Origin: an uncultured virus (IMG/VR IMGVR_UViG_3300037067_011375)
Lineage: Duplodnaviria; Heunggongvirae; Uroviricota; Caudoviricetes
Strand: one strand, 5' to 3'
Virus record (IMG/VR): IMGVR_UViG_3300037067_011375
Location: 62,001 to 126,000 of that record
Length of the DNA stretch: 64,000 nucleotides
The position numbers and the translations under genes were made by a program. The notes beneath the pieces are model-generated. The model saw only the letters and a program-made list of their open reading frames with translations. It ran no database searches and had not been told where the DNA came from. Positions 810-39,884 of the stretch are shown here, in pieces; the first letter of the stretch is position 1; the number at the start of each line of letters is the position of its first letter.

Positions 810-1469
810 ATGGAAACCAGCACCGTCAAATCCGGCATCTACCAGATTGTCAACAAGGTAAACGGCAAGGTTTATGTCGGGAGTGCCGTTAATATCAACG
901 AACGCTGGTACGAACATAGGCGTACTCTAAATAAGGGCACGCATGCAAACGTGTACCTTCAGCGCTCTTGGTGTGAACACGGAGCGGATGCTTTTGTGTT
1001 TGAAATAGTTGAAATAGTTGCAGATGCGCAAGATTTAATTGCACGGGAACAATTTTGGTTGGATCGACAGTGTGTGGTAAGCCACGGATACAATATTTGC
1101 CGTATTGCTGGGTCCACGCTGGGTAAGGCACACTCGGAAGAAACAAAAAACAAAATAAGCACTGCGTTAACAGGTAAGTCGCTTCCTTCGGAGACACGCG
1201 CCAAGATTAGCGCCGCGAAGAAAGGACATAAGTTTGGTCCTATGTCTGAGGAGCATAAAGCACGCATAAGCACATCCAAAAAAGGGAAACCAGTAGCCAC
1301 CAAAGAACAGCACGCTACACTAGCAAACAGATTCATAGAACTGAATAAGGCGCGCATTGGTGTTCCTTTGTCCGAAGAGCACAGGGCTAAGATAAAAAAC
1401 AGCGTCACTGTTGCGCGAGCACTTCGGTCGGCGGGGCAAATCCTTACCACCGATAAAAGCGAGGAATGA
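810..1469 (+). CDS. GIY-YIG homing endonuclease with NUMOD3 repeats
   Basis: 'SGIYQIVNKVNGKVYVGSA...RWYEH' followed by repeated 'HSEETKNKIS / SEEHKARIS / LSEEHRAKI' motifs. Confidence 0.92.
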   Translation: METSTVKSGIYQIVNKVNGKVYVGSAVNINERWYEHRRTLNKGTHANVYLQRSWCEHGADAFVFEIVEIVADAQDLIAREQFWLDRQCVVSHGYNICRIAGSTLGKAHSEETKNKISTALTGKSLPSETRAKISAAKKGHKFGPMSEEHKARISTSKKGKPVATKEQHATLANRFIELNKARIGVPLSEEHRAKIKNSVTVARALRSAGQILTTDKSEE

Positions 1470-9817: not shown

Positions 9818-11686
9818 TCAATCTTCTGGTGTGACTCTGCTTTTCCTGCTCAATATCGCGCTCATGTAAGGCAAGCTCACGTTAAACTGGTGTGCCAGCA
9901 TTTTAATCGTGTGCATACCGGCAGCGTATAGTCGCCGCGCTTCCTCTACATTCTGGTTGGTCATCTTGCTATTGATTGACTTCTCTCCTCGAGCATCCGT
10001 GCCGTGGCGGCGACGATCCAGAGAGTTTTCGCTGGGAGACCCGTAACATAGATTCTCGATCCTGTTGTCCCCGGGGTTTCCGTTTAGATGTCGCACACAG
10101 TATCCTGGCGGGCACGGTTCACCAGAGAACGCCAGGGTAACCAGTCTATGGATTTGCCATTGTGTCATGGTACTCTTGCCTACCTCGGGGTTTGGTTTGC
10201 ACAGCATCACCATGAGCCTGCCCATGTTGTGCCCTGGTTTCAACACGCGAGTTTTCTGTGTCCTGGTCATGTCGCCGTTCAAGTCTCTGGTGAGCCGGGT
10301 TAAACTTCTGACCTGTCCAGCATTACTCACCTGATAGTACCCCTCAAATCCAGGTACGTCTAACCACCGTTCCACCTCGTCAGGTTGGTAAGCCCACCGA
10401 GCCCACACCGGAGTAAAATCAATCGTGCAAGGAGGTAGTTTTTCCTTCTTGCCCGGTACAACCGGTGCGTCAGCATCCAGGTAGGCCCAACTGTCTCGCC
10501 TGATAATCCTCCCTACCATCTCACGGCAGATGCCATGTTGGGCCGCGATGGCGGACTGACTCCTGCCTCCTTCCGCATACTGCTCCCGTATTTCTCTCAC
10601 GGTGTCTTCGGTGATTTTACTCATGCCATTACGCTCGCCACCATTATCTGTTCCATGACTTTTACGGTCAACAGAGTTTTCTTCGCGGGTGCCATAGCGT
10701 AGGTTGGTTAGGGCGTTATTTTCTGGGTTGCCATCCAGGTGGCGTATTTCTTGTTTCGGAGGACACGCACCCGTGAAGGCCAGCATCACCAGTACATGGA
10801 CCAGGTAGTGCTCCCCTCGCCTGGTGGGTTCCCCGCCACACCCGCCAGCCAAGGACACGAATAAATGCCCAGACGCACTTTTTACTGGGCGCAACAGCAC
10901 TCCTTGCCGTTTATACGTGCGCGCGTTCTTCTGAACCAATAGTCGGTCTACGCTCCTCACTCGGCCGAGGTTGGACACCAGATAGGCAGAAAATCCTGGT
11001 ACCTCTCGCCATTCTTCCCCGGGTAAATCTTTTTCATACAGGGTTCGCTTCTGCTGCGGTGTTACTGGTTTTTCGTAAGGTGCCTGTACGTCTGTTCGTT
11101 TCCACACCTGATATTTCACGATCCGACGCACAGTAGATGTGCCCACACCGTATTTTGCGGCCAACTCTGCGAAAGTATACTTGCCGTTTGCGTGTAGTTC
11201 GCGCATTTCGTCCACTTGGTCACCAGTCAACGCCGTCACGCCTGTGCGTGGGCCTCGTGGCCTGACGTCCAATTCTTTTTGCCGTGTGGTGTACTCCTCA
11301 TGCGTTGCCCAACTTAGGTTTTCCAGGCTGTTGTTTTCTGCTCTACCATCAAAATGTAGGCATTTTTGTCCGTCTTCTGGTGTCCCAACGAAAGTTGTTA
11401 AAACCAAATCCGATACCATTCTACCCTGCATTTTGCTTCCGTCCATTGGGCACAGCACTACTCTAGCGTGGCCAGACGCACCGTAGGACGGCTTTATGAC
11501 ATGCCCGCGTACATGCCGTTTAAGCCGGCCATTTCGGAATATTTTACGGTCAAGACTCCTGACCCGTCCCCAGTCCGACACTTGGTATCCAGGGAAACTT
11601 GGGACATCCCGCCAGCGTTCTACTGCTTCGGAAGCACCGGGTTCAAGACCTGCAAACAAATCGTTTTGCTCAGATTCGTGCGTCAT
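9818..11686 (-). CDS. Triple NUMOD4-HNH endonuclease
   Basis: Three copies of 'W..VPG..GYQVS..GRVRS' + 'HLDG..NN...NL.(W/Y)GT' + HTH. The likely start is ATG 11686. Confidence 0.9.
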   Translation of the reverse strand: MTHESEQNDLFAGLEPGASEAVERWRDVPSFPGYQVSDWGRVRSLDRKIFRNGRLKRHVRGHVIKPSYGASGHARVVLCPMDGSKMQGRMVSDLVLTTFVGTPEDGQKCLHFDGRAENNSLENLSWATHEEYTTRQKELDVRPRGPRTGVTALTGDQVDEMRELHANGKYTFAELAAKYGVGTSTVRRIVKYQVWKRTDVQAPYEKPVTPQQKRTLYEKDLPGEEWREVPGFSAYLVSNLGRVRSVDRLLVQKNARTYKRQGVLLRPVKSASGHLFVSLAGGCGGEPTRRGEHYLVHVLVMLAFTGACPPKQEIRHLDGNPENNALTNLRYGTREENSVDRKSHGTDNGGERNGMSKITEDTVREIREQYAEGGRSQSAIAAQHGICREMVGRIIRRDSWAYLDADAPVVPGKKEKLPPCTIDFTPVWARWAYQPDEVERWLDVPGFEGYYQVSNAGQVRSLTRLTRDLNGDMTRTQKTRVLKPGHNMGRLMVMLCKPNPEVGKSTMTQWQIHRLVTLAFSGEPCPPGYCVRHLNGNPGDNRIENLCYGSPSENSLDRRRHGTDARGEKSINSKMTNQNVEEARRLYAAGMHTIKMLAHQFNVSLPYMSAILSRKSRVTPED

Positions 11687-11687
11687 G

Positions 11688-11909
11688 CTACTGGTCCTTT
11701 CGGGTTGGCTGCGTAGCCAACCAAGCCAAAACAGGCCCACGGAGTCCTGGGTCCGGTGCTGCAGCCCCGTGGCGCCAGCGGTTGATGGTAGAGCGGTTGA
11801 CCCCCAGGGCTGCGGCGACCTCATGGTCTTGCAGTCCTACCCGAGCGACCTCGGCCACGAAGATCCCGTGGAACTCTTGGGCCCCGTAACGTAAGAACAT
11901 TTCTGCCAT
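11688..11909 (-). CDS. Small XRE-like HTH protein
   Basis: 'GLQDHEVAAALGVNRSTINRWRHG'. Confidence 0.75.
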   Translation of the reverse strand: MAEMFLRYGAQEFHGIFVAEVARVGLQDHEVAAALGVNRSTINRWRHGAAAPDPGLRGPVLAWLATQPTRKDQ

Positions 11910-21361: not shown

Positions 21362-22622
21362 CTGCTACTTTCCTTGTGAACACAGGTGCCCACGGTGAAA
21401 TTCCTGTTTCAGCGACGGCAGTTTCACCAACCTCGAAAGATTGGTCAGCGCTCCCATCTCGGCAGGCGTTGATTCGGGTGTAGCCCACCCTATTTGTTTC
21501 AGATTTATGGCAGCGTTGTGATCCCGGTCGCAGGTGAAACCACACTCAGGACAACAGAACGTCCTGACATTAAGGCCCAGTTTTTCCACCACGTGGCCAC
21601 ATTGGCTGCACCGCTTTGACGAAGGGAACCAACGGTCCGCCACCACGACCTTGGTTCCATACAGTGGGGCTTTGTACTCCAGTTGACGCCGCAGTTCGCC
21701 CCAACCTTCATCATGGATTGCCCTGGCCAATTTGTGGTTCTTGACCATGCCCTTCACATACAAATCCTCGATCACGACCGTTTGGTTTTCGCGGCAGATC
21801 CGAGTAGTTGTTTTGTGAAGAAAATCGTTCCTGCTCCAGGCGATTTTGCGGTGAAGCCGGGCCAACGCCATCTGGGCTTTCTTGCTGTTCCTGGATCCCT
21901 TCTGTTTACGGCTGAACCGCCGTTGTTTCCTCTTCAGTTTCTCTTGGGCTTTTCTCAGGGCCTTGGGCCCCTGGATCTGTTCTCCGGTTGACAACGTTGC
22001 GGTAGTCTTGATCCCAAGGTCAACCCCGATGGTGCCATCCGCTACCCTGGCTCGCTCAGAATGCTCGACATCAATCTGTACAGACAAAAACCAAGCGTCA
22101 GCAACACGTTTGACCACCGCCCCCATGATCTTGCCGACGAAGCGTAATGGCTCGCGAGTCTTTACCCAGCCCAACACCGGGATCCTGACGCGGGTGCCAT
22201 CCAGGCTGAATTTATCGTTGGCCATGTAAAACGAGTCATGTTGACCCTTCCGCTTGAGTTTAGGATACTGTGACACACCTTTATGCAATCTGGTGAATGC
22301 GTTTTGCACATTATGAAACGGTTGCGCGGTGCAGTCACGATGAACGTCATATGTCCATGGAAACTGTTCTCCACGAATGGTATTAAAGCTTGCGCGTAGT
22401 TTTCTACCACTGGGTTTTTCACCTGCTTGATGCAGTCTGGTCCACTCGGCCAGCGCCCAGTTGTAGGTGAAACGGGCCACCCCGCAGGCCCGAGCAAAAT
22501 ATTGCTCCTGCTTGACGGTGGGGACTAAGCGTATGGAGTGCGCCAAGATCATGAACTAGTATTTTACCCTTGTCTAAAGATTTAATATTAAAAATAAAAG
22601 CAGCGACACAGAGCGGTAAAAC
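21362..22622 (-). mobile_element. Non-autonomous tnpB-only element (IS607/IS1341-like), ends approximate
   Basis: tnpB lies opposite to the operon with an AT-rich left end; CGGTAAAAC occurs at both junctions (21353-21361, 22614-22622). Confidence 0.7.
21365..22552 (-). CDS. tnpB: RNA-guided endonuclease TnpB
   Basis: N-terminal HTH_OrfB, RuvC 'GVDLG' and 'IEDL', zinc ribbon CSQCG/CPECG, 'DRDHNAAIN'. Confidence 0.95.
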   Translation of the reverse strand: MILAHSIRLVPTVKQEQYFARACGVARFTYNWALAEWTRLHQAGEKPSGRKLRASFNTIRGEQFPWTYDVHRDCTAQPFHNVQNAFTRLHKGVSQYPKLKRKGQHDSFYMANDKFSLDGTRVRIPVLGWVKTREPLRFVGKIMGAVVKRVADAWFLSVQIDVEHSERARVADGTIGVDLGIKTTATLSTGEQIQGPKALRKAQEKLKRKQRRFSRKQKGSRNSKKAQMALARLHRKIAWSRNDFLHKTTTRICRENQTVVIEDLYVKGMVKNHKLARAIHDEGWGELRRQLEYKAPLYGTKVVVADRWFPSSKRCSQCGHVVEKLGLNVRTFCCPECGFTCDRDHNAAINLKQIGWATPESTPAEMGALTNLSRLVKLPSLKQEFHRGHLCSQGK

Positions 22623-29891: not shown

Positions 29892-30972
29892 CCGTGATCT
29901 TGGCAAGTTGACCGACCGCACCGCTGACCCCACCGAGGCGGTCCAGCGGGTGCTCGCGTCATTCGCGGCCGACGCGATGGGCCGCAACCCAGACGTCGAC
30001 GACGACGGCGAGACCGCAATGGATTTTGTCAGTTTCATGATGGTGTTGCTTCAGAGCGACGCCGTCATCAATCTCCCGACGTACCGGCGCCGGCGGGTCG
30101 CGACCGTCAATCCCGACGAGATCGTGGTGTCGGCGGCCAACCGGCACGGCCGCGTCCTGGGGCTTACGTCAAACCAGCACGTCTGGTCCATGGGGGTCAA
30201 CATCAACGACGCCAACGTCATGACCGCCACGACCGTTGGGGCATCCAGGACTTTCCTGTTCCAGGACATCACGGGTGAGTGGTACGACGAGTGGAGCGGA
30301 ATCGACTTCCGGACCGACAACTTCCCCGAGAAGCTCCGGACCGCGTTCGCGGCCAGTGAGATCAAGTTCACCGAGATGGTGTCGAGAAACCGCGGGGCTG
30401 GTGTCTACGGGCGCCGTTTCATCCTGGCCAAGGCGGCGATCACCCGGCTGGCTGACCGCGACAAATTCCTCAAGGCCGAGGCCAAGCGGTTGGCTCCCCC
30501 GGTGGACCCCATGGCACCCAAGGCTCCGTGGTCAGGGTCCAAGAAGGTCGGGACTGGCGAGAAGGTCAAGGTCTGGGCGTTCAACTGCTTCGTGGATACC
30601 TCGCTGACCGGCGACTACACCCCGATGGGGTCGCTCGAGGAGGTCCAGCGGGAACGCCACCGACTCCGCCAGAACATCCAGACCCTCCGGTTTTGCACCA
30701 GGGCCACGGAGTTCGGGTTCTGGAAGGACCACATCGGTACCACCATCGGGCACGAGGACGCTGATCTGCTCGGTTGGCTCAAGGGCGGCGACCCCACTGC
30801 CCTGAAGGTACCGGCTTGGTGTCCGGGCGAGTGGACCACGGGGGTCAAGGCCCCTGGGGCCAAAACATTCTTCGCAGCTCTGCGGCGTCCCGATGCCCCC
30901 ACGGTTCGGTGGCGGGCTTGGCGCCAGACCGAGGAAGTCGCAGCCCCCATGGACGACAGCACCGGCGAGTAA
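29872..30972 (+). CDS. Hypothetical early protein
   Basis: AGGAG RBS; strong GC3 codon bias. Confidence 0.7.
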   Translation: MNLQDFNRDLGKLTDRTADPTEAVQRVLASFAADAMGRNPDVDDDGETAMDFVSFMMVLLQSDAVINLPTYRRRRVATVNPDEIVVSAANRHGRVLGLTSNQHVWSMGVNINDANVMTATTVGASRTFLFQDITGEWYDEWSGIDFRTDNFPEKLRTAFAASEIKFTEMVSRNRGAGVYGRRFILAKAAITRLADRDKFLKAEAKRLAPPVDPMAPKAPWSGSKKVGTGEKVKVWAFNCFVDTSLTGDYTPMGSLEEVQRERHRLRQNIQTLRFCTRATEFGFWKDHIGTTIGHEDADLLGWLKGGDPTALKVPAWCPGEWTTGVKAPGAKTFFAALRRPDAPTVRWRAWRQTEEVAAPMDDSTGE

Positions 30973-31009
30973 CTCCTAAACCAACACGCAGTCCAGTGAA
31001 AGGAAAATC

Positions 31010-31927
31010 ATGACGACCAAGTACCCCACCAAGCACGATGTCCGCGAGCACCATGGCAATCTTTACCGTGCGGCCAAGCAATGGCTGGAGCAGCCCGACA
31101 GCTGGTCCCCCGACTGGACCGACGACTGGGTCGCGGCTGCTGCTTTCCTGAACCAGCAGCCCGACGGCCGGATGTTCCATGAGACCCCCTGGACCCCCAA
31201 GGGGGTCATGGGGTTGTTCTCCCAATACCGGTTTGACGACCATGGTAATGTGGTCCCGACCCCCAGGGCTCCGCGACAGTCCCGCAAGCCCCTGGGGTTC
31301 CGGCGGACTGCCACGGGTTACCGTCGGTACCTGAAGCCCGGGACCAGTCAGTACCGCAAGGTCATGGCTTCGGTGGTCCAGGCATTCCAGTGCGGTGGCA
31401 CCGCTGCCGAAGCAGCCAAGATTCTGGAGACCAGTGACGCCAACCACCTCAAGAACTACCGGCAGGGCCGCCCCTGGACTGCCCCGGTGGTCACGAGCCT
31501 GATGTACCGACTGCGTCATGGCAATCCCGGTCTGCATGATCGCCTGGTCACCGAGATCCCGACCAATGTGGTACATAGGGATCCCAAGACCAAGAAGGAG
31601 CAGGTGGTCAACACGACCAAGCTGTTCGACACCCTGGCCAAGGAGTTTGCGCCGCCTGATGCACCTGTGATCGACGCGTTCACGACGCCCAAGCAGGAGT
31701 TTGCCTTCTACGCACCGTCACCGACGGCCAAGCAGGAGCCCAGCAAGCCCAAGGGCCGCGTCATGAAAATCCAGATCCGCGAGGCCGGTGACCTTCTCCA
31801 AGTGTTCCGGACCCATAGTGGTACCTTGGTCCTGACGGTCAAGTCCACCGACCAGCCAGGTGCCCTGATGTCCGCGGTCGACCAGTTCTGCCAGGGCCTC
31901 GGCGTCACGATCCCTAAGGTGCTGTAG
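31010..31927 (+). CDS. Hypothetical protein (possible DNA-binding)
   Basis: AAGGA RBS; HTH-like 'TAAEAAKIL'. Confidence 0.65.
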   Translation: MTTKYPTKHDVREHHGNLYRAAKQWLEQPDSWSPDWTDDWVAAAAFLNQQPDGRMFHETPWTPKGVMGLFSQYRFDDHGNVVPTPRAPRQSRKPLGFRRTATGYRRYLKPGTSQYRKVMASVVQAFQCGGTAAEAAKILETSDANHLKNYRQGRPWTAPVVTSLMYRLRHGNPGLHDRLVTEIPTNVVHRDPKTKKEQVVNTTKLFDTLAKEFAPPDAPVIDAFTTPKQEFAFYAPSPTAKQEPSKPKGRVMKIQIREAGDLLQVFRTHSGTLVLTVKSTDQPGALMSAVDQFCQGLGVTIPKVL

Positions 31928-32043
31928 TGAAATCTCCTTGGCCCACTTGGCTGTCCAGGACTTCCCAGCGCCTGATCTACGTGCTCTGGGTCATCGTGGT
32001 GATCGCTGGAATCGTGATCCTTGTTCTTCGCGGCACCTGGTAG
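31927..32043 (+). CDS. Small membrane protein (38 aa)
   Basis: GTG overlapping the upstream stop; 'LIYVLWVIVVIAGIVILVL'. Confidence 0.5.
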   Translation: MKSPWPTWLSRTSQRLIYVLWVIVVIAGIVILVLRGTW

Positions 32044-32175
32044 CGCTTGCTCACTCCCCAAGACATTGCCCAGCGGATTCAGCAGCATGACCTGAACAGA
32101 GCCCGCCGCAAGTCGCGGGGCTTCAGCCCCGGCGAATAGGCGCGGCTTTTCTTCGGCTTCAGCCAGAAATAGGTC

Positions 32176-32204
32176 TTGACAGCACTGTCTACAGGCACTA
32201 TAGT
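32176..32204 (+). promoter_or_regulatory. sigma70 promoter inside the IS left end, overlapped by GTCTAC/GTAGAC boxes
   Basis: TTGACA-17-TATAGT; the inverted pair CTGTCTACA/TGTAGACAG spans the -10 element. Confidence 0.75.
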
Positions 32205-32245
32205 GTAGACAGGACGGTAGACACAAAGGAGAAATAAATGAGAAC
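32205..32245 (+). repeat. ~41-bp gene-leader repeat, copy 1
   Basis: GTAGACAGGACGGTAGACACAAAGGAGAAATAAATGAGAAC. Confidence 0.9.
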
Positions 32246-32618
32246 TTTATACGTCGTGCTTGGTTTTGCTGCGCTAACGTTTGTGGGTTGTGGTAAGAGT
32301 CCTGAGGCGAGAAGGGAAGAGCTGATTAGTCTAGTAGAACGTAAGGTCCAGCATGACCTGCCCTATGAAGACCACAGCACCAGAATTGTTCATGCAAAAA
32401 TTAGCGATCCTTACCTATGTGTCTATGTAAATGCAGCAGGAGATCCGCTAGCCAGATACGCAAGCAGCTTTGCTCAAGAACAGGACGTATTGGGCGCGGC
32501 AAAGCAAGTTGGCCTTACTACGATCGTGATCCACAACGGTCTTAGATCTAATGAAATCGACACGGTAACCGGAACGTCTCAGATGCGTACTGATGCTCTA
32601 CCCAGCGGATGCAAGTAG
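32238..32618 (+). CDS. Putative lipoprotein (IS passenger 1)
   Basis: MRTLYVVLGFAALTFVGC lipobox; AAGGAG RBS. Confidence 0.75.
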   Translation: MRTLYVVLGFAALTFVGCGKSPEARREELISLVERKVQHDLPYEDHSTRIVHAKISDPYLCVYVNAAGDPLARYASSFAQEQDVLGAAKQVGLTTIVIHNGLRSNEIDTVTGTSQMRTDALPSGCK

Positions 32619-32655
32619 ACAGGACAGTAGACATAAAGGAGGAATAAATGAGAAC
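32615..32655 (+). repeat. ~41-bp gene-leader repeat, copy 2
   Basis: GTAGACAGGACAGTAGACATAAAGGAGGAATAAATGAGAAC; 3 mismatches to copy 1; supplies the TAG stop of passenger 1. Confidence 0.9.
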
Positions 32656-33244
32656 ATTAGGTTTTACCTTGTTTTGTCTGTGCTGCCTATCTTGTAAACA
32701 GGAGAGTCAATCTGCCGAGAAAGCGGAAACTGCTGATGCTGTTGCTCCGACGTGGCAGGAACAAGAAGCACAACGGGATCAGCAAAATCCGCTTGCTTCC
32801 GCGGCCTCGATCTACCGTGAGCTAGTTGACGCCTACGCGGTGTTGTCTGGCAAGGAAGAGTGCGTGCCCTGCACGCAACTGGTGCAACAGGAGCGTCGTG
32901 CTCAGCAAGTTCAACGCGGCGGCACTGACGAGCACCGACGCACAGCTTACAGCATCAAGAGTGCGGCCATCAAAGAATGTTGGGGGCATTTTGACGGTTA
33001 TGAAACCACACGGTTCGATCGCTACCACGAGCGCGTAGGGCGTTTTTCACCAGGTCAACACCAGGTTCTTTATCGACTCTTACAGAAGGGTTTGGTGCTA
33101 TTACGGCCATGTCGAGCTAAATTATGCCATTTGGCCAAAGACAATATTAGGCGCGAGGCTGAAGGTAAATGTAATGCACTGGGCGTAGTGCTGCTCGCCG
33201 TAGAAAAGGCGCTCAAGCAAGCCGGTGCATTCAAAGAGGAATAG
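32648..33244 (+). CDS. Putative lipoprotein (IS passenger 2)
   Basis: MRTLGFTLFCLCCLSC lipobox; AAGGAGG RBS. Confidence 0.75.
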   Translation: MRTLGFTLFCLCCLSCKQESQSAEKAETADAVAPTWQEQEAQRDQQNPLASAASIYRELVDAYAVLSGKEECVPCTQLVQQERRAQQVQRGGTDEHRRTAYSIKSAAIKECWGHFDGYETTRFDRYHERVGRFSPGQHQVLYRLLQKGLVLLRPCRAKLCHLAKDNIRREAEGKCNALGVVLLAVEKALKQAGAFKEE

Positions 33245-33258
33245 GGCCGGTACTCGCC

Positions 33259-33660
33259 ATGGCTAACGCGATGGAATACCAGCGAGACGAGCACCGGGTC
33301 CACTTGATCGTGTACCACTTGATCTGGGTGCCCCGACGCCGTAAAGCCGTGTTGATCGGTGCCGTCGCCCAGGACTGCAAGGCACTGATCGAGCGTAAGT
33401 GCGCGGAGCAGGGCTGGACCATCCTGGAGTTGGCCATTGACCCCGACCACATTCACCTTTTCGTGCGGGCCTGGCCTACCGTGTCGGCCGCCGAGATTAT
33501 ACAGAAGTGCAAGGGGTTGACTAGCCACGAGCTTAGAAAGCGACATCCCCAGCTCTTGAAACTGCCGTCACTGTGGACCAGGTCCTACTTTGCCTCCACG
33601 GCCGGTAATGTGTCGAGCGAAACCATCCAACGGTATATCGCGGCTCAGCGTAAATTCTGA
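33259..33660 (+). CDS. tnpA: IS200/IS605 Y1 (HUH) transposase
   Basis: 'YHLIWVPRRRK', HUH motif 'DHIHLF', 'LWTRSYF', catalytic Tyr in 'IQRYI'. Confidence 0.95.
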   Translation: MANAMEYQRDEHRVHLIVYHLIWVPRRRKAVLIGAVAQDCKALIERKCAEQGWTILELAIDPDHIHLFVRAWPTVSAAEIIQKCKGLTSHELRKRHPQLLKLPSLWTRSYFASTAGNVSSETIQRYIAAQRKF

Positions 33661-34808
33661 TGTTAAAGACCTTCCGCTACCGTCTCTACCCCAGCAAGGC
33701 CCAGGCCAAACGCCTGGCCTCGACGCTGGAGACGTGCCGCCGGGTCTACAACGACTGCTTGGCCGAGCGGAAAGTGGCCTACGAGACCGAAGGCAAGACC
33801 ATCGGGAAGTTCGAGCAGCTCCGTCACGTCAAGGAGATCAAAGCGACCAACCCCTATGCCAAAGGAGTCCACAGCCACGTCCTCCAGGTCACGATCTCGG
33901 ACCTGGATAAAGCGTTCCAAGCATTTTTCCGTAGGGTCAAGCAGGGCGAAAAGCCCGGCTACCCTAGGTTCAAGGGGCGGGATCGTTTTGACTCGTTCGG
34001 GCTGAAAGAACTGGGCAACGGATTTAAGGTGGACGGCCGACGGCTGAAGATCTCTGGTGTCGGAAGGATCGCGGTCAGGTGGCACCGGGAACTGGAAGGC
34101 AAGGTCAAGACTATCCGGTTGGTCCGGGCCGCGGGCCATTGGTTTGCATGTTTCTCCTGTGAGGTTGCTGTGCAGCCACCGCTGCCCGCGACGGGCAAGA
34201 GCGTTGGGCTTGACGTTGGTATCGAGAGCATCTTGACCACCAGCGATGGCGACAAGGTAGAGAACCCTAGGTGGTACCGTGGCGACCAAGCCAAGCTCAG
34301 GGTGGTGCAACGTAGGGTGTCCAGACGAAAGAAAGGGAGCAGGCGTCGGCGTAAAGCCATCAAGATGCTCCAACGGCACCACGAAAGAACCAAAAATCGG
34401 CGAAAGGATTTTTTGGACAAGTTGGCTTGCACGTTGATCACAACTAACGACGTCATCGCGATCGAAGACTTGCAGGTCACCAATATGGTCAGGAACCACC
34501 ACCTGGCCAAGAGCATCATGGACGCATCCTGGGGCTATCTGCGGCAACGACTTGAAGCCAAAGCGGCAGAAGCTGGACGGCAAGTCATCGCGGTACCCCC
34601 GGCCTACACGTCCAAATCTTGCTCGGGTTGTGGCGCTATTTTTGAGGATCTGAAATTAAGCACCAGATGGGTCAAGTGCTGCTGTGGTTTGTCTCTGGAC
34701 CGCGACCACAACGCTGCCGTCAACATTCTTAGGAGGGGACACCTCCTTCGGGAGTCAACGTGGGCCGCTCAAGAGCCGTGCGTATCCCGAGAAGCCGCTG
34801 GGCTTTAG
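33660..34808 (+). CDS. tnpB: RNA-guided endonuclease TnpB
   Basis: 'FRYRLYP', 'GLDVG', 'IEDL', 'TSKSCSGCG', 'DRDHNAAVN'. Confidence 0.95.
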   Translation: MLKTFRYRLYPSKAQAKRLASTLETCRRVYNDCLAERKVAYETEGKTIGKFEQLRHVKEIKATNPYAKGVHSHVLQVTISDLDKAFQAFFRRVKQGEKPGYPRFKGRDRFDSFGLKELGNGFKVDGRRLKISGVGRIAVRWHRELEGKVKTIRLVRAAGHWFACFSCEVAVQPPLPATGKSVGLDVGIESILTTSDGDKVENPRWYRGDQAKLRVVQRRVSRRKKGSRRRRKAIKMLQRHHERTKNRRKDFLDKLACTLITTNDVIAIEDLQVTNMVRNHHLAKSIMDASWGYLRQRLEAKAAEAGRQVIAVPPAYTSKSCSGCGAIFEDLKLSTRWVKCCCGLSLDRDHNAAVNILRRGHLLRESTWAAQEPCVSREAAGL

Positions 34809-35231
34809 CCCATGCGGAGTGTCACCGAGAGTACCAAACCACTATCATGTGGGCGTTGCTTGACGCGGTCGCGGACGCACATCAGTATGCCGATGTCCAG
34901 TTGGTCGAGACCCCCTGGACCCTCGTGGCCGACGTCGTGGCCTACGGAGTTCAAGGTAAATCCCCTGCCCTGACGACAGCGGCAATTCAATGTCTGGAGC
35001 AGGGATTCGCCGCCGTGGGCACCAAGGCCAGTATTTTATACGACTTGGCTGGTGACGGCAGCACCTGTTGTGTCGTGGATCCAGAAGTTCATGACCCCGA
35101 AAAGGTCGTGGCCAGGATGAAAGCCCCGGTGGTCAGGTATCAAGGCCGGATTTTTATTCGCCGTTAGTCCACGAAACTAAAACAGAATCCTGGGGCACGG
35201 CAAAATAAATCCATTTTTCTGTAAAAAAGAG

Positions 35232-35260
35232 TTGACGTTGTCAATCAAATGACCTATATA
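35232..35260 (+). promoter_or_regulatory. sigma70-like promoter
   Basis: TTGACG-17-TATATA with an A/T-rich UP region. Confidence 0.65.
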
Positions 35261-35317
35261 TTGCTTGTAGGCAGCGACAACCAACGGCCCCAAGGGGCCT
35301 GAACCAGGAGAACGAAA

Positions 35318-36130
35318 ATGCCCAGCAAGAAGATCGATGGTATCACCCGCAACGATTTCTTCTACGTGGAGACCAAGTTCGTCCGGGTGGAGCCCGGGTT
35401 CAACGGAAGGATCACCACGACCGACAACGGAGTCGCCCCCGACGACGACCTCGCCGACCTGGAGTCGATCCGGGAGCACGGGGTCCTGGTGCCGCTCATG
35501 GTGCGGCCCGACCCCGAGGGGATCACCAAGTACGTGGTGATCGAGGGGCACCGGCGGCTCGCCAAGGTGCTGCTGCTGAACGCGAACGGCTGCGACATCC
35601 GGGTGCCCGTCATCGTCGAGCACGTCAACGAGCAGGACGCCGCCGCCATGATGGCGATGGCGGGGCTCCAGCGCAAGAACTTCTCGTTCGCCGAGGAGGT
35701 CAACATCGTCCGGAAGTTCGCCCGGTGGGGCCTGTCCCCGGCCGAGACGGCCAAGAAGATCGGGATGCCGGTGGAGTGGGTGCGGCAGCACCTCGCGGTT
35801 TCCGCCGCCCCCGAGTCCGTCCTGGCGGCCGTGGCCTCCGGGGCCATGCCGGCCGACGTGGCGGTCAAGATCGCGAACCTCTCGGCCCGGGATGTCAAGA
35901 AGGTCGTGGACGCGGCCCAGAAGGGCCGGGGCTGCGCCCGCAAGGCCTCAGAGAAGGTGACCGGCAAGGCCGCGCGGCCCGGCAAGAAGGTGGTGGTGTC
36001 CATGAAGACCCTGCTGGCCGAGACCAAGCGGAACCGGAGCCCCCGGGTGAACCGCTGGATCGAGACCTGCCTGGACTTCGCGGCCGGGATGGTCCCGGCC
36101 GACGACCTGGCCGACATGCTCCGTCGCTAG
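35318..36130 (+). CDS. ParB/Spo0J-like protein
   Basis: 'SIREHGVLVPLMVR...VIEGHRRL' ParB-N box followed by an HTH ('SPAETAKKIGMPVEWVRQHL'). Confidence 0.85.
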   Translation: MPSKKIDGITRNDFFYVETKFVRVEPGFNGRITTTDNGVAPDDDLADLESIREHGVLVPLMVRPDPEGITKYVVIEGHRRLAKVLLLNANGCDIRVPVIVEHVNEQDAAAMMAMAGLQRKNFSFAEEVNIVRKFARWGLSPAETAKKIGMPVEWVRQHLAVSAAPESVLAAVASGAMPADVAVKIANLSARDVKKVVDAAQKGRGCARKASEKVTGKAARPGKKVVVSMKTLLAETKRNRSPRVNRWIETCLDFAAGMVPADDLADMLRR

Positions 36131-36180
36131 TCCTTCCTTTCCGCTGCTTCCCCTTTCGCCTTTTTCTTTCCAAAGACCTC

Positions 36181-36209
36181 TTGACAAGTATTGCACTGCG
36201 CGGTACACA
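36181..36209 (+). promoter_or_regulatory. sigma70-like promoter for the RHH-tnpB operon
   Basis: TTGACA-17-TACACA; ATG 6 nt downstream. Confidence 0.55.
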
Positions 36210-36215
36210 ATAGGT

Positions 36216-36359
36216 ATGAAGACTGCTACCAGCTTCCGCCTGTCCAAGCGGGCCCATGAAATCTTGGCCATCCTGGCTGAACAGAAGGGCGTCAGCAGGA
36301 CCGCCATCATAGAGATCGCGTTGCGTGAATTGATCACACGGGAAAAGTCCAGTGGGTAG
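36216..36359 (+). CDS. CopG-like ribbon-helix-helix protein (47 aa, absent from the ORF track)
   Basis: MKTATSFRLSKRAHEILAILAEQKGVSRTAIIEIALRELITREKSSG*; overlaps the tnpB start. Confidence 0.8.
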   Translation: MKTATSFRLSKRAHEILAILAEQKGVSRTAIIEIALRELITREKSSG

Positions 36360-37872
36360 AGCCACAACCCCCACGTTCATCGCGGAGTTTCCCTTGGTCA
36401 CGACTCCTGATCAGGAGCGTGAACTTGCCATCAGGATGGAGATGGCCCGGCAGATCTACAACGCTGCCTTGGAAGAATCCCTCAGGATCCTGGATCTCAT
36501 GCGGGAGTCTCGGGCGTGGAAGCAGGCACGGAAGTTGAAGGGGAAAGATAGGACCGCGGCGTTCAAAGCAGCGGTTCAATCTTTTGGGTTCAACATCGGC
36601 ACAATCTATTTGTTTACGAAAACCTGCCGTAAGTCTTGCTGTATTCAAGACCATGTGGGAGCGGTGGAGGCACAAACCCTGAGTGACCGAGCGTTCAGCG
36701 CAGTTCAGCGCTATGGTTTCGGGAAGCAGGGTAGACCACGGTTCAAGGGTTACGGTAGACTTCATAGTGTTGAGGGAAAGAGCAACAAATGTGCCATTAT
36801 GTTGCGGGGCAACCAAATCCTGTGGATAGGGTTGACCCTGTCCTTAATGCTGGACCCCAAGTCAAACGAATGGCAAACCCAGGCGCTGGCCTGCAGGACC
36901 AAGTATTGCCGCATTGTTCGTCGGCGCATCAAAGGTCAGGATCGTTGGTTCTGCCAGTTGGTACAAGAAGGGCGTCCTCCCCAGGTTCATCAGGTAGGTG
37001 AAGGTTCCGTGGGGCTGGACATCGGGCCCAGCACGATCGCTGTTGTCAGCGACTCCGCCGCTAAAGTCCAGCAGTTTTGCCCGACGGTTCAAGAACCTTG
37101 GGCCGAGACCAGGGTGATCCAGCGGGCTCTGCGTAGAAGCAGAAAGGCTACAAATCCTAATCGGTACAACTCAGACGGCACGTATCAACGAGGACGCGGC
37201 CACTGGACCAAATCCACGCGGTATCGGAAATTACAGGTCAGATTGGTAGAACAGCAGCGAAAACTCTCTGCAGAGCGGCGTAGGGCACACGGCCAACTCT
37301 GCAACGAGATCTTGGCCCAAGGAAAGGAACTCAAAACCGAAAACATAAGCTATTTGGCTTTTCAAAAGAATTTTGGCCGAAGCATGAAAGTCCGGGCTCC
37401 TGGGATGTTCATGGCGCTGCTGACCCGCAAAGCCGAAAATGCTGGCGGGTCCATCACGTTGATCACGCCCAGGACCACAAAGTTGTCCCAGTACGACCAC
37501 ACTGTGGATCGGTACATCAAGAAACCATTGTCCCAAAGGATCCATTGCTTTGGCGACGGTGTTACTAAACCGGTTCAACGTGATCTTTACAGTGCTTTTC
37601 TGGCCAAACATTGTTCCAAGGATAACTTGGATGTCCGTCAGGTCCAACTGGCCTGGCCGGCTGCGAAACCGCTGCTGCGACGGGCGACATCCAAGTGGAA
37701 AGAATCTGCGAGCAGGAAGGCTTCGGCCATTCCTCACGATCATGATCGTCAGAGCGGATCGTCCGTCAAAGCCGACCCAGACCACGACGAGGCCCGGGAT
37801 GTTGTAGTGAGGACACCAGACTCACGAGAGCCCGGGAGAGCTGCGGTTAGGAAAGCAGAATCTCATGTTTAG
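36352..37872 (+). CDS. tnpB: Long (506 aa) TnpB-family nuclease lacking the canonical zinc-ribbon cysteines
   Basis: 'GRPRFKG', RuvC 'GLDIG', 'KTEN', 'QRDLYSA'; an RE-like hairpin at 37862-37879. Confidence 0.85.
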   Translation: MGRATTPTFIAEFPLVTTPDQERELAIRMEMARQIYNAALEESLRILDLMRESRAWKQARKLKGKDRTAAFKAAVQSFGFNIGTIYLFTKTCRKSCCIQDHVGAVEAQTLSDRAFSAVQRYGFGKQGRPRFKGYGRLHSVEGKSNKCAIMLRGNQILWIGLTLSLMLDPKSNEWQTQALACRTKYCRIVRRRIKGQDRWFCQLVQEGRPPQVHQVGEGSVGLDIGPSTIAVVSDSAAKVQQFCPTVQEPWAETRVIQRALRRSRKATNPNRYNSDGTYQRGRGHWTKSTRYRKLQVRLVEQQRKLSAERRRAHGQLCNEILAQGKELKTENISYLAFQKNFGRSMKVRAPGMFMALLTRKAENAGGSITLITPRTTKLSQYDHTVDRYIKKPLSQRIHCFGDGVTKPVQRDLYSAFLAKHCSKDNLDVRQVQLAWPAAKPLLRRATSKWKESASRKASAIPHDHDRQSGSSVKADPDHDEARDVVVRTPDSREPGRAAVRKAESHV

Positions 37873-38036
37873 GCATGGGAAGGTCTGGCTAAAGGAAGTC
37901 GAGCGTCATCTTTTCAGAAGCCAAAAAGGCCAAGGCCGACGCGACCGTCCTGGCTAACCTAGCCCTGGTGCTCGCGGAAGCCGAACAGCACTTGGCCGAC
38001 GCTTCCGTGATGGAGCCGGCCGAGTAAAATAAAGTA

Positions 38037-38065
38037 TTGACAAGGTCAATACCCTGTACTATAAA
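38037..38065 (+). promoter_or_regulatory. sigma70 early promoter
   Basis: TTGACA-17-TATAAA followed by a GAGGAG RBS. Confidence 0.75.
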
Positions 38066-38086
38066 GACTGTAGAGGAGACAGCGTC

Positions 38087-38701
38087 ATGACCACGAAAAT
38101 CAAGACCACCAGGCACCCTGACGGATTCACCGCCTACGAGATCGCTGGCCTGATGGAGATGGCCCAGCGGTACCTGTACCTCCGGGAAAACCTGAGCCGT
38201 ACCCACGACATGATGGTCTCGGCCGACAGCATGGTGGCCAAGGGCCTGGACCTCCCCGAAGCCCTGAAGCCCGAGCGACTGCTCAAGGGCATCGCATACT
38301 ACATCAGCACGGCGTTCAACCCGGATCGCTGTCTGTGCAGTTGCAAGGGTATGTACTTCTGCGACCTGTCTGCTGGCCACCCTGGTCCCCACAAGGATGA
38401 TACCTTCCAGTGGGACCACGATTATGATGCAGGCGTCGCCGGCGAGATCAAGGAGTTGGAGGTCCTGGACCACGACGAAATCCAGCGGGAAATCGGCATC
38501 AGGGTCATCTACGACTCGGTGGACCACCACCACGAAGCCCGTCGGTTCAAGACCATGAAGGCGGCCCAGCGGTTTGCCCACCGGTGGGTCGGGACCACGC
38601 CGGAAATCGGCACTGATTATGCTGTGAGCCCCGACGGTATCGGGCGCATCACCTGCGAGGGATGCGACGTCTACACGTTGTTTCCCGACGTGGCGAGGTA
38701 G
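38087..38701 (+). CDS. Hypothetical early protein
   Basis: First gene after the promoter; good RBS. Confidence 0.7.
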   Translation: MTTKIKTTRHPDGFTAYEIAGLMEMAQRYLYLRENLSRTHDMMVSADSMVAKGLDLPEALKPERLLKGIAYYISTAFNPDRCLCSCKGMYFCDLSAGHPGPHKDDTFQWDHDYDAGVAGEIKELEVLDHDEIQREIGIRVIYDSVDHHHEARRFKTMKAAQRFAHRWVGTTPEIGTDYAVSPDGIGRITCEGCDVYTLFPDVAR

Positions 38702-39203: not shown

Positions 39204-39884
39204 ATGTACGAGTGGCAATACTGCGCCGTCGACACCAACGCCCAGAAGTATTTCCCGTGGACCAGCCAGCGCCGCCAGGCCATCCGGGACTTGCTGGACT
39301 GGGTCTGGGACCAGCCCAATCGCGTCCGTGGCGAGCGCGTCGCCCACATCGCCGTGAAGGACTGCTACGTGGAACGTCGCTGGACCGACCAGGGCGACCC
39401 CGAGGGAGATCCGGAGGGTAGCGTCGGAGAAGCCATGTGGTACGCCCAGTACCACGGGTGGGTGGACCGACAGGGTCGTTGGGTGGACCCTCAGGACCCT
39501 CCTGGCCACAAGGACTCGCTCTGGCTGGACGACGGTAGAGCCCCGAGCGAGTGGGAGCGTGGGCTTTCGTGTAGCCAGGAAGACCGTGACGCCAGCGAGT
39601 GGGTCTGGGTCATGACCATCGACGAGGCCAAGACAGCTTTGCAGTCCGGCCGCTACCGTTACGTGTCCTTGGACTGGTCGCTGGAGTCCACGGATCCTGA
39701 CCACACCGGTACCGACCTGGCCAAGTGGATCCTCCAGGAAGCGGAGGCTGGGCGACTACCACGTCTCAAGTGGTACGTGCATTCGGGTCTCTCGTCTGGT
39801 CGGGCAGAAATGCGCCCGTACCTGAAGGCCGCGGACCAGAGTTGGGCGGCCCGAGAAAAGGTGCAAAATCATGACGCCAAGTGA
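39204..39884 (+). CDS. Protein with a C-terminal cyclic-phosphate-processing receiver-like domain
   Basis: 'LWLDD.R.P', 'VSLDWSL...TGTDLAKW', 'VHSG..GRAEM'. Confidence 0.65.
   Translation: MYEWQYCAVDTNAQKYFPWTSQRRQAIRDLLDWVWDQPNRVRGERVAHIAVKDCYVERRWTDQGDPEGDPEGSVGEAMWYAQYHGWVDRQGRWVDPQDPPGHKDSLWLDDGRAPSEWERGLSCSQEDRDASEWVWVMTIDEAKTALQSGRYRYVSLDWSLESTDPDHTGTDLAKWILQEAEAGRLPRLKWYVHSGLSSGRAEMRPYLKAADQSWAAREKVQNHDAK

Follow-up and report, generated by a model that had tools for sequence, protein, structure and literature searches.

Insertion sequences (IS) of the IS200/IS605 family are regarded as minimal, consisting of tnpA and tnpB only. The mechanistic model of the family is IS608 (ISHp608) from Helicobacter pylori. 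There, the four bases 5' of the foot of each end hairpin pair with a cleavage tetranucleotide, and the left cleavage site is at the same time the target; the sections of the underlying work at hand give TTAC, TCAA and AAAG, and spacings of 19 nt and 10 nt (PMC3201880). For TnpB and its right element RNA (reRNA) the prototype is ISDra2 from Deinococcus radiodurans. Cargo in TnpB and IS200/IS605 elements was previously not known and is rare as far as the consulted part of a 2023 survey goes (Altae-Tran et al., PMC10691335), and according to the accessible part of a preprint some IS605 elements encode an accessory repressor, Arc (bioRxiv 10.64898/2026.09.24.754181). Here we examined a stretch of 64,000 nucleotides of phage DNA (the window), which corresponds to bases 62001-126000 of the 132,407-bp IMG/VR virus record IMGVR_UViG_3300037067_011375, rated 49% complete. 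Positions 32092-34825 of the window (2,734 bp) are occupied by one unit of the IS200/IS605 family with a Y1 TnpA and a TnpB; two further genes, lp1 and lp2, are located between its left end and tnpA. We consider it very probable that this is a single IS605-type element with about 1.05 kb of foreign, AT-richer cargo encoding two exported proteins. As the family is held to be minimal, the presence of two extra genes for a lipoprotein and a probable lipoprotein is unusual.

The ends of the element have the build of the family. Counted from 32092, the left guide CAAG is at +18 to +21; it is followed by the hairpin TCGC-GGGGC-TTCA-GCCCC-G-GCGA (32113-32135). Counted from 34826, the right guide GAAG is at -35 to -32, followed by a bulged hairpin like the left one, CCGC-TGGGC-TTTA-GCCCA-T-GCGG (34795-34817), and then by AGTGTCAC before the cut. 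Folded as single-stranded DNA both ends adopt an identical shape of 4 bp, a 1-nt bulge, 5 bp and a 4-nt loop. Subterminal imperfect palindromes are thus present at both ends and terminal inverted repeats are absent, as is characteristic of IS200/IS605. When the window was scanned strictly for this hairpin architecture, two sites were found on the + strand, i.e. the two element ends, and two unrelated sites on the - strand; block shuffles scanned in the same way had a mean of 0.76 for both strands combined. Profiles of the left end (LE) and the right end (RE), built from 9 left and 14 right ends of relatives and run with nhmmer, had a sole match each in the window, at 32100-32150 (LE, E 3e-10) and at 34776-34825 (RE, E 2e-14). 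Therefore, a second left end near tnpA is absent. The hairpin scan detected no LE-like structure between 32136 and 33259, and the only two imperfect look-alikes between 31900 and 35000, one inside lp2 and one inside tnpB, were discarded. The original prediction, which had been made from the bare sequence, had set the left end about 1.1 kb upstream of tnpA; this is borne out by the single LE match and a gap of 1,108 nt, and all coordinates which it had listed for ends, guides, hairpins and cleavage sites were recovered as given.

The ends were then compared with those of relatives. We collected 109 loci with related TnpBs, 80 on bacterial or archaeal genome contigs (mostly Chloroflexota, some Planctomycetota) and 29 on viral contigs, with identities of up to 80%. 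The right-end consensus consists of GAAG, a bulged hairpin with a TTTA loop and AG(T/C)GTCAC. Of 37 right ends, 36 terminate in TCAC, and immediately beyond it the flanking sequences diverge. The left-end consensus starts with TGAC, continues with a variable stretch of 8-14 nt, CCCGCCG, CAAG and a bulged hairpin, and ends with TAGGCGGGTTT. TGAC was present within 28 nt upstream in 44 of 46 distinct related left ends, compared with 8.2% of random 28-nt windows; in those loci in which the hairpin register was found, TGAC and guide are 15-22 nt apart. The hairpin stems covary across the relatives. One exceptional locus (L050:3440-3535) has the guide AAAG with an upstream TTAC, the IS608 pair, instead of CAAG with TGAC. 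This reads as a natural compensatory change between guide and target and is consistent with the IS608 rule. Accordingly, the pairing of CAAG with TGAC and of GAAG with TCAC, which had been predicted by analogy with IS608, stands. Among the IS608 motifs cited with that prediction, TTAC, TCAA and AAAG are in the source whereas GAAT is missing from the part of that text at hand (PMC3201880). Insertion 3' of a guide-matched tetranucleotide, together with a right cleavage site matching the right guide, is what is expected of an IS200/IS605 element.

The element is inserted 3' of TGAC and interrupts a small phage gene after its first 15 codons. By arithmetic on the coordinates the parts at 32047-32091 and 34826-35167 are in frame, as had been stated for the phage open reading frame (ORF) rejoined by excision. 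The downstream ORF has a single non-self homologue, a protein of 123 amino acids at NCBI (P0007), with 101 of 113 residues identical in BLASTP (89%). The alignment begins at residue 11 of P0007, i.e. with the first codon after 34825. The ten residues ahead of it end in an Asp before REYQ, and the 15 codons in the window likewise end in an Asp, encoded by the GAC of TGAC. With P0007 the gene is known in an uninterrupted form, as this protein reads through the site, and the insert has an exact right boundary. As similarity resumes exactly past 34825, all 2,734 bp act as a single insert when compared with P0007. A scan of viral contigs for an empty site, carried out with the downstream ORF, returned only a near-identical second virus record (L002) and L003; the latter matched by chance, on the strand opposite to a portal-like gene. 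A blastn search with 30000-37000 against 50,697 phage records gave one match of 74 bp, inside tnpB (Thermus phage TSP4).

The length of the element sets it apart from its relatives. In 35 relatives we were able to place the left as well as the right end, and 19 of these elements contain both tnpA and tnpB. Seventeen of these 19 span 1,643-1,828 bp, compared with 2,734 bp in the window (the lengths of the relatives are approximate, with an assumed offset of 8 nt to TGAC). The gap between left end and tnpA is 24-114 nt in 18 of the 19, compared with 1,108 nt. The two long relatives contain nested or interrupting ORFs and no genes between left end and tnpA: between tnpA and tnpB of the one, a reverse ORF of 415 aa is nested (L044:2220-3467, - strand), and tnpB of the other is broken by a 248-aa ORF without a Pfam match (L024:4964-5710). 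Another locus (L041:2906-3995) has three small ORFs between left end and tnpB, one with a LexA-like DNA-binding HTH (5.8e-5). Homology to the closest relatives extends from TGAC across left end and promoter to GTAGACAG just past the -10 box and is then broken; judged by eye, it resumes at ATGGAATACCAG (33271), the tnpA start in the relatives. In the alignment with L087, the closest relative, promoter and GTAGACAG coincide with the promoter of tnpA. The extra DNA of about 1.05 kb (roughly 32213-33270) is therefore located between the left-end promoter with its 5' untranslated region (5'UTR) and tnpA; it carries lp1 and lp2. None of the other 108 related loci contains a relative of lp1 or lp2. 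The GC content is 0.44-0.49 over 32200-32800 vs 0.58-0.66 in the phage flanks; as predicted, the lp genes are AT-richer.

The mobility genes agree with this assignment. TnpA scored 133.9 bits with the NCBIfam equivalog transpos_IS200 (cut-off 55) and matched ISHp608 TnpA (2.8e-22), the C-terminal Tyr and the H-I-H of the HUH motif being aligned; Sulfolobus TnpA structures align too. Its native start probably is the ATG at 33271 (MEYQRDEH, as in the relatives). TnpB scored 324 bits with NCBIfam guided_TnpB (cut-off 100). Among natural solved structures it is closest to ISDra2 TnpB (2.4e-63 over residues 3-360). The residues D (GLDVGI), E (AIEDL) and D (RDHNAA), which we take to be the catalytic positions of the RuvC domain, align to identical residues in the best PDB match. 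To judge by these motifs, the catalytic equipment of both proteins is intact.

The cargo proteins belong to very small families. By the general lipobox rule, lp1 is clearly predicted to be a lipoprotein, having a signal peptide and the lipobox MRTLYVVLGFAALTFVG-C. Its only homologue (P0004) is 61% identical and of equal length, and has LALMG-C in place of this segment; Cys18 and both Cys of the mature region are kept. A variant of lp1 with one substitution (99% identity) is present on another contig. The N-terminal hydrophobic segment of lp2 ends in ..CCLS-C, that of its homologue P0002 (47% identity) in ..LSAA-C; lp2 is a probable lipoprotein. Of the two lipoprotein genes originally proposed, lp1 has a clear lipobox and lp2 is retained as probable. 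A second homologue of lp2 is P0005, and only three representatives were present among 1.84 billion sequences. The mature parts of lp2 and P0002 have six invariant Cys in common, an indication of an oxidising location outside the cytoplasm. From two-sequence alignments AlphaFold2 (AF2) predicted compact folds with a predicted local distance difference test (pLDDT) score of 79 for lp1 and 77 for lp2. Searches of both proteins against Pfam, PHROG, PADLOC and NCBIfam gave no match, and Foldseek against PDB gave nothing at E <= 1e-3. In the fold search VIA lp1 reached a Z of 7.0 at best and lp2 one of 8.7, both in the range of the usual noise, and Atlas scores were <= 0.83. A likeness of lp1 to type II secretion pilotins recurred weakly (Foldseek ranks 21 and 30, VIA Z 5.0, Atlas 0.82); it was below every threshold and was dropped. 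A metagenome scan with the lp2 alignment returned, among the matches listed, the window's own contig only; viral-contig scans with P0002, P0004 and P0005 returned nothing or the same phage.

Expression of the cargo is probably linked to that of the mobility genes. A promoter and terminator scan gave no further + strand promoter match inside the element ahead of the right end, and between the promoter and the end of tnpB terminator-like matches on the + strand were present only inside tnpB. The genes are tightly spaced with 29 nt between lp1 and lp2, 14 nt between lp2 and tnpA, and an overlap of 1 nt between tnpA and tnpB. From this gene layout we infer that lp1-lp2-tnpA-tnpB are transcribed as one unit from the promoter at 32176-32204. 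Both lp genes are preceded by a strong AAGGAG Shine-Dalgarno sequence, which is part of a repeated 45-bp unit containing two GTAGACA, AAGGAG and ATGAGAAC. GTAGACA occurs 12 times in the window (3.9 expected); five copies are clustered at 32186-32633, one of them inverted inside the promoter spacer and the others as two direct-repeat pairs 12 nt apart, one pair before each lp gene. These repeats may be an operator or a fold-back element. In relatives a different inverted repeat is located at the corresponding position, where it surrounds the -10 box of the promoter of tnpA. Across the right-end junction a weak promoter-like match is formed (GTGTCA-18-TATCAT, 9/12; 34819-34848, + strand), which is directed into the truncated phage gene. 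An exact 12-nt word and a 13-nt word (92%) are common to lp1 (32349-32360 and 32601-32613) and to the phage flank with the junction (32069-32094); the exact word covers TGAC plus the element's first 3 nt (rough chance ~0.003). The idea that the left phage flank is a right-end remnant, suggested by a 13-nt complementarity, was abandoned after a pairwise alignment without convincing similarity. The features of the locus are compiled in the table.

Table. Features of the element and of its insertion site (positions refer to the window).
Feature	Position	Strand	Description and basis
5' part of interrupted ORF	32047..32091	+	TTG start and 14 codons ending in GAC, 15 codons; LLTPQDIAQRIQQHD
TGAC, insertion target and left cleavage tetranucleotide; predicted transposon-adjacent motif (TAM) of TnpB	32088..32091	+	Upstream TGAC in related left ends
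Left end	32092..32150	+	Linker 32092-32099, CCCGCCG, guide CAAG 32109-32112, palindrome 32113-32135, TAGGCG..TTT box to 32150; DNA fold, hairpin scan, alignment with relatives, nhmmer LE profile
Sigma-70-like promoter TTGACA-17-TATAGT	32176..32204	+	11/12 consensus matches; flanked by inverted repeat TGTCTACA/TGTAGACA
45-bp repeat, copy 1	32205..32249	+	GTAGACA-N5-GTAGACA, AAGGAG Shine-Dalgarno, first 4 codons of lp1
lp1, predicted 126-aa lipoprotein, alpha/beta domain	32238..32618	+	ORF; signal peptide, lipobox FVGC with Cys18
45-bp repeat, copy 2	32615..32659	+	91% identical; 5'UTR and first 4 codons for lp2; contains lp1 stop codon
lp2, 198-aa exported protein, probable lipoprotein (..CLSC), helical bundle	32648..33244	+	ORF; homologues P0002 and P0005
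tnpA, Y1 (HUH) transposase	33259..33660	+	Pfam Y1_Tnp 1.7e-34
tnpB, RNA-guided nuclease	33660..34808	+	Pfam OrfB_IS605, TNB (Zn-ribbon) and HTH domains
Conserved structured 3' region, candidate omega-RNA scaffold	34684..34825	+	Overlaps tnpB 3' end and right end
Right end	34776..34825	+	Guide GAAG 34791-34794, imperfect palindrome 34795-34817, AGTG, TCAC 34822-34825
Flank which an omega-RNA guide would copy, predicted TnpB target joined to TGAC	34826..34845	+	By analogy with the ISDra2/IS605 mechanism, as described in the part of PMC13565253 at hand
3' part of interrupted ORF	34826..35167	+	113 codons, REYQTTIMW...; P0007 residues 11-123 align

Independent evidence on the boundaries came from assembled contigs of other sequencing runs. 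The runs which contain this stretch are labelled landfill and groundwater metagenomes. The left junction is bridged by contigs from X3, X4 and X5 and the right junction by one from X5, with zero differences; thus, several samples contain the phage with the element. In X4, a contig of depth 7.2 leads from 32142 straight to 34788 and is foreign before 32100 (...TGAC + 9 nt) and behind 34825. By its sequence it is a miniature of about 90 nt made up of left and right end alone in AT-rich foreign flanks. We liken it to the palindrome-associated transposable elements (PATEs), miniature derivatives of IS200/IS605. An X6 contig departs from the window sequence exactly behind 34825. Together, the X4 and X6 contigs indicate that this pair of ends travels together, and they fix the right boundary independently. 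The joint 32091>34826 was absent from the X3-X6 contigs, which is uninformative as contigs drop rare variants. An excised circle or a donor joint was not seen among the contigs.

How such an element might work can be modelled on IS608 and ISDra2, based on the accessible parts of the mechanistic literature (PMC3201880, PMC13565253, PMC10055086). TnpA would excise the whole 2.7-kb top strand as a circle, with CAAG pairing to TGAC and GAAG to TCAC, and would reinsert the circle 3' of another TGAC. TnpB with an RNA from 34684-34825 plus flank would cut the empty site TGAC/CGAGAG..., either left by excision or in an unoccupied allele. Recombination with a loaded copy would then restore the element or, in a co-infection, spread element and cargo. 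The products of lp1 and lp2 would go into the host envelope during infection. In the 3' region RNAalifold on 18 relatives predicted 27 pairs, and 20 of them show compensatory changes; TnpA, however, requires the terminal hairpin as DNA just as much. A search of Rfam over 31500-38500 gave 0 matches at E <= 1. That the element is an active RNA-guided vehicle for cargo is in our opinion unlikely. In such a vehicle TnpA would move the unit between TGAC sites, TnpB would cut unoccupied alleles, e.g. that of the P0007 phage, and lp1-lp2 would be copied in to the benefit of carrier phage or host, for example by blocking the entry of competitors. If true, an active loaded element would be a natural minimal gene drive with a payload, built on IS605. 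A role of lp1-lp2 in superinfection exclusion is one guess; the family, fold and defence-system searches gave no match that would point to it.

How firm is the assignment of lp1-lp2 to a single element? The original prediction that both genes are inside the ends of one IS200/IS605 element is supported, and it survived the three tests it had proposed for its own refutation. The left end at 32092 is the only one, with a single LE match in 64 kb and no LE-like hairpin closer to tnpA. An intact homologue of the rejoined ORF is available in P0007, with 89% identity that begins exactly at the codon following the right end. A relative with lp genes at this locus and without tnpA/tnpB was not found; the only other virus record with lp1-lp2, from a near-identical phage, carries the same loaded element. 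Several points weigh against our assignment. The loaded element is known from a single insertion site in one phage lineage (two assemblies), and the contigs from several runs may all derive from that phage. Neither an empty site at the DNA level nor a second loaded copy was seen, which leaves mobility of the 2.7-kb unit a proposal. The N-termini of P0007 and of 32047-32091 differ in length and sequence, and the start codon of the rejoined gene is therefore not confirmed. The first 8-9 nt after TGAC differ between the element and the X4 miniature, which consequently belongs to a relative. In lp2 the lipobox is atypical, and the related P0005 has none. Transcription as one unit is a prediction, and tnpA is without an obvious Shine-Dalgarno sequence behind the cargo. 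Finally, the cargo could have entered an IS which already resided in the phage.

This last point leads to the most serious alternative. An IS605-type element of about 1.7 kb may have been inserted first and lp1-lp2 may have entered later, e.g. by recombination at GTAGACAG; the loaded form then would never have transposed, maybe because it is too long or poorly expressed. We regard this course of events as quite possible, at somewhat less than an even chance. It would agree with the single known insertion site, with the position of tnpA as third gene of the predicted operon and its missing Shine-Dalgarno sequence, and with the words which the left phage flank and lp1 have in common. The duplicated 45-bp 5'UTR starts with the IS's own GTAGACAG and resembles a recombination scar. 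The length of the unit also counts in its favor. Excision of IS608 declines with the distance between the ends. The usual single-stranded gap between Okazaki fragments is given as 1.5-2 kb in the portion of the literature at hand (PMC5027513). On the other hand, both ends, the guides, the cleavage sites and the motifs of TnpA and TnpB are intact in the loaded element. The GC content of the cargo is unlike that of the phage; therefore, the cargo is not locally reshuffled phage DNA. The data give no dating of the capture relative to the insertion.

A chimera generated by two events we consider very improbable. Here the left end would be a solo remnant or a miniature, the tnpA-tnpB copy with its right end would have lost its own left end, and the lp genes would be phage morons caught in between. 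Miniatures of left and right end do exist in this element family, as the X4 contig demonstrates, and the phage is rich in mobile DNA with three TnpB genes and two homing endonucleases. However, the left end in the window runs unbroken into the promoter and the GTAGACAG that precede tnpA in relatives; it is thus not a bare end or a miniature. Neither a right-end remnant beside the left end nor a left-end remnant near tnpA is present, with one profile match each. P0007 spans the site and its similarity is back exactly after 34825, and the GC content of the cargo again differs from that of the phage. Lastly, that lp1 and lp2 are decaying or spurious reading frames in filler DNA is scarcely credible: their homologues are extremely few and a match to a family, fold or defence system is lacking, yet the homologues of equal length (61% and 47%) keep the signal-peptide Cys and all Cys of the mature region, both genes have strong Shine-Dalgarno sequences, the AF2 folds are compact (pLDDT 77-79, from two-sequence alignments) and a 99% variant of lp1 exists on another contig.

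The phage which harbors the element is represented by two records. In the second one (L002; 177,603 bp) identity is 100% over 8,318 bp around the element and 99.88% over 8,594 bp. Most surrounding genes are without assignment; among them are a family A DNA polymerase, a ParB-like protein and lectin/esterase-type proteins. A protein with a cREC_REC domain (cyclic-phosphate processing receiver; 7.5e-16) is encoded at 39204-39884 (+ strand). Genes of the homing-endonuclease type are located at 810-1469 (+ strand; GIY-YIG/NUMOD3) and at 9818-11824 (- strand; HNH_3, three NUMOD4 motifs and HTH domains). Besides that of the element, a TnpB gene of full length is present at 21365-22552 (- strand; OrfB_IS605 1.5e-30, TNB, HTH), without an adjacent tnpA. 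It is unmatched by the LE and RE profiles and thus represents a different IS lineage. A third gene with a TNB domain is beyond the window (G000:C1:36201-36404). The Y1 tnpA is present as a single copy in the whole virus record. Three TnpB genes and two homing endonucleases indicate that this phage is heavily colonised by selfish elements. In addition, a divergent TnpB-like protein of 506 amino acids is encoded 1.5 kb downstream of the element (36352-37872, + strand); it scored 82.8 bits with NCBIfam guided_TnpB, below the cut-off of 100, and 4.9e-30 with phrog_506, and had no PDB sequence match. In the region of this gene a bulged 4+5-bp hairpin with the architecture of the element ends is present on the minus strand at about 36399-36421.

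The locus represents a clean case. The cargo is located behind the IS promoter, the ends can be checked against dozens of relatives, tnpA and tnpB are intact, and a homologue of the target gene is uninterrupted. It may serve as a test system for how much extra DNA a peel-and-paste single-strand transposon tolerates and for whether TnpB homing carries linked genes through a phage population. With lp1 and lp2 it also presents two protein families with a handful of members among billions of sequences, apparently envelope proteins delivered by a mobile element. Every sequence feature testable here makes the element a member of IS200/IS605; only the strict definition of an IS, i.e. mobility genes only, does not apply as lp1 and lp2 are inside the ends. 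Therefore, it is better named a cargo-carrying IS or a small transposon. As such it is a real but rare case.

Compared with known systems, the element is built like IS608, with a Y1 HUH TnpA and tnpB downstream, subterminal imperfect palindromes and, 5' of the foot of either hairpin, a 4-nt guide. The left tetranucleotide is 21 nt upstream of the left hairpin, compared with 19 nt in IS608, and the right cut is 8 nt past the hairpin foot, whereas TCAA is 10 nt 3' of the foot in IS608, according to the sections of the IS608 work at hand (PMC3201880). Unlike IS608, the element uses TGAC/TCAC instead of TTAC/TCAA and its hairpins are GC-rich. At 2.7 kb it has two non-transposition genes between left end and tnpA; IS608 has none. 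With ISDra2 it shares the closest TnpB, and the same logic is expected, i.e. a TAM that equals the left target motif and a guide copied from the right flank, as set out in the accessible part of PMC13565253. In contrast to ISDra2, the TAM would be TGAC and not TTGAT, the omega-RNA is proposed from conserved structure only, and the element bears cargo and resides in a phage. The PATE-like X4 miniature, about 90 nt with zero genes, and the 2.7-kb element with four genes are opposite extremes of one end pair.

Extra genes within IS200/IS605/IS607-type units are also a feature of the examples of Altae-Tran et al. and of Arc. As far as the consulted parts of these reports show, those genes mostly encode regulators or enzymes acting on nucleic acids, and the branch named there is associated with a serine recombinase (PMC10691335; bioRxiv 10.64898/2026.09.24.754181). 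The window, by contrast, has two exported envelope proteins as cargo, in a Y1-TnpA element, directly behind the IS promoter and in a phage genome. Envelope lipoprotein cargo behind an IS promoter in a phage-borne Y1-TnpA element was not found in the literature searched. Finally, the situation is reminiscent of the free-standing homing endonucleases Seg and Mob of the T-even phages, which cut the allele without the nuclease so that linked DNA is co-copied in a co-infection, as stated in the part of PMC13565253 at hand. Unlike Seg and Mob, the nuclease in the window is guided by RNA and belongs to a transposon whose ends are defined. By analogy, co-conversion of the Seg/Mob type could be the route by which the cargo spreads among related phages.

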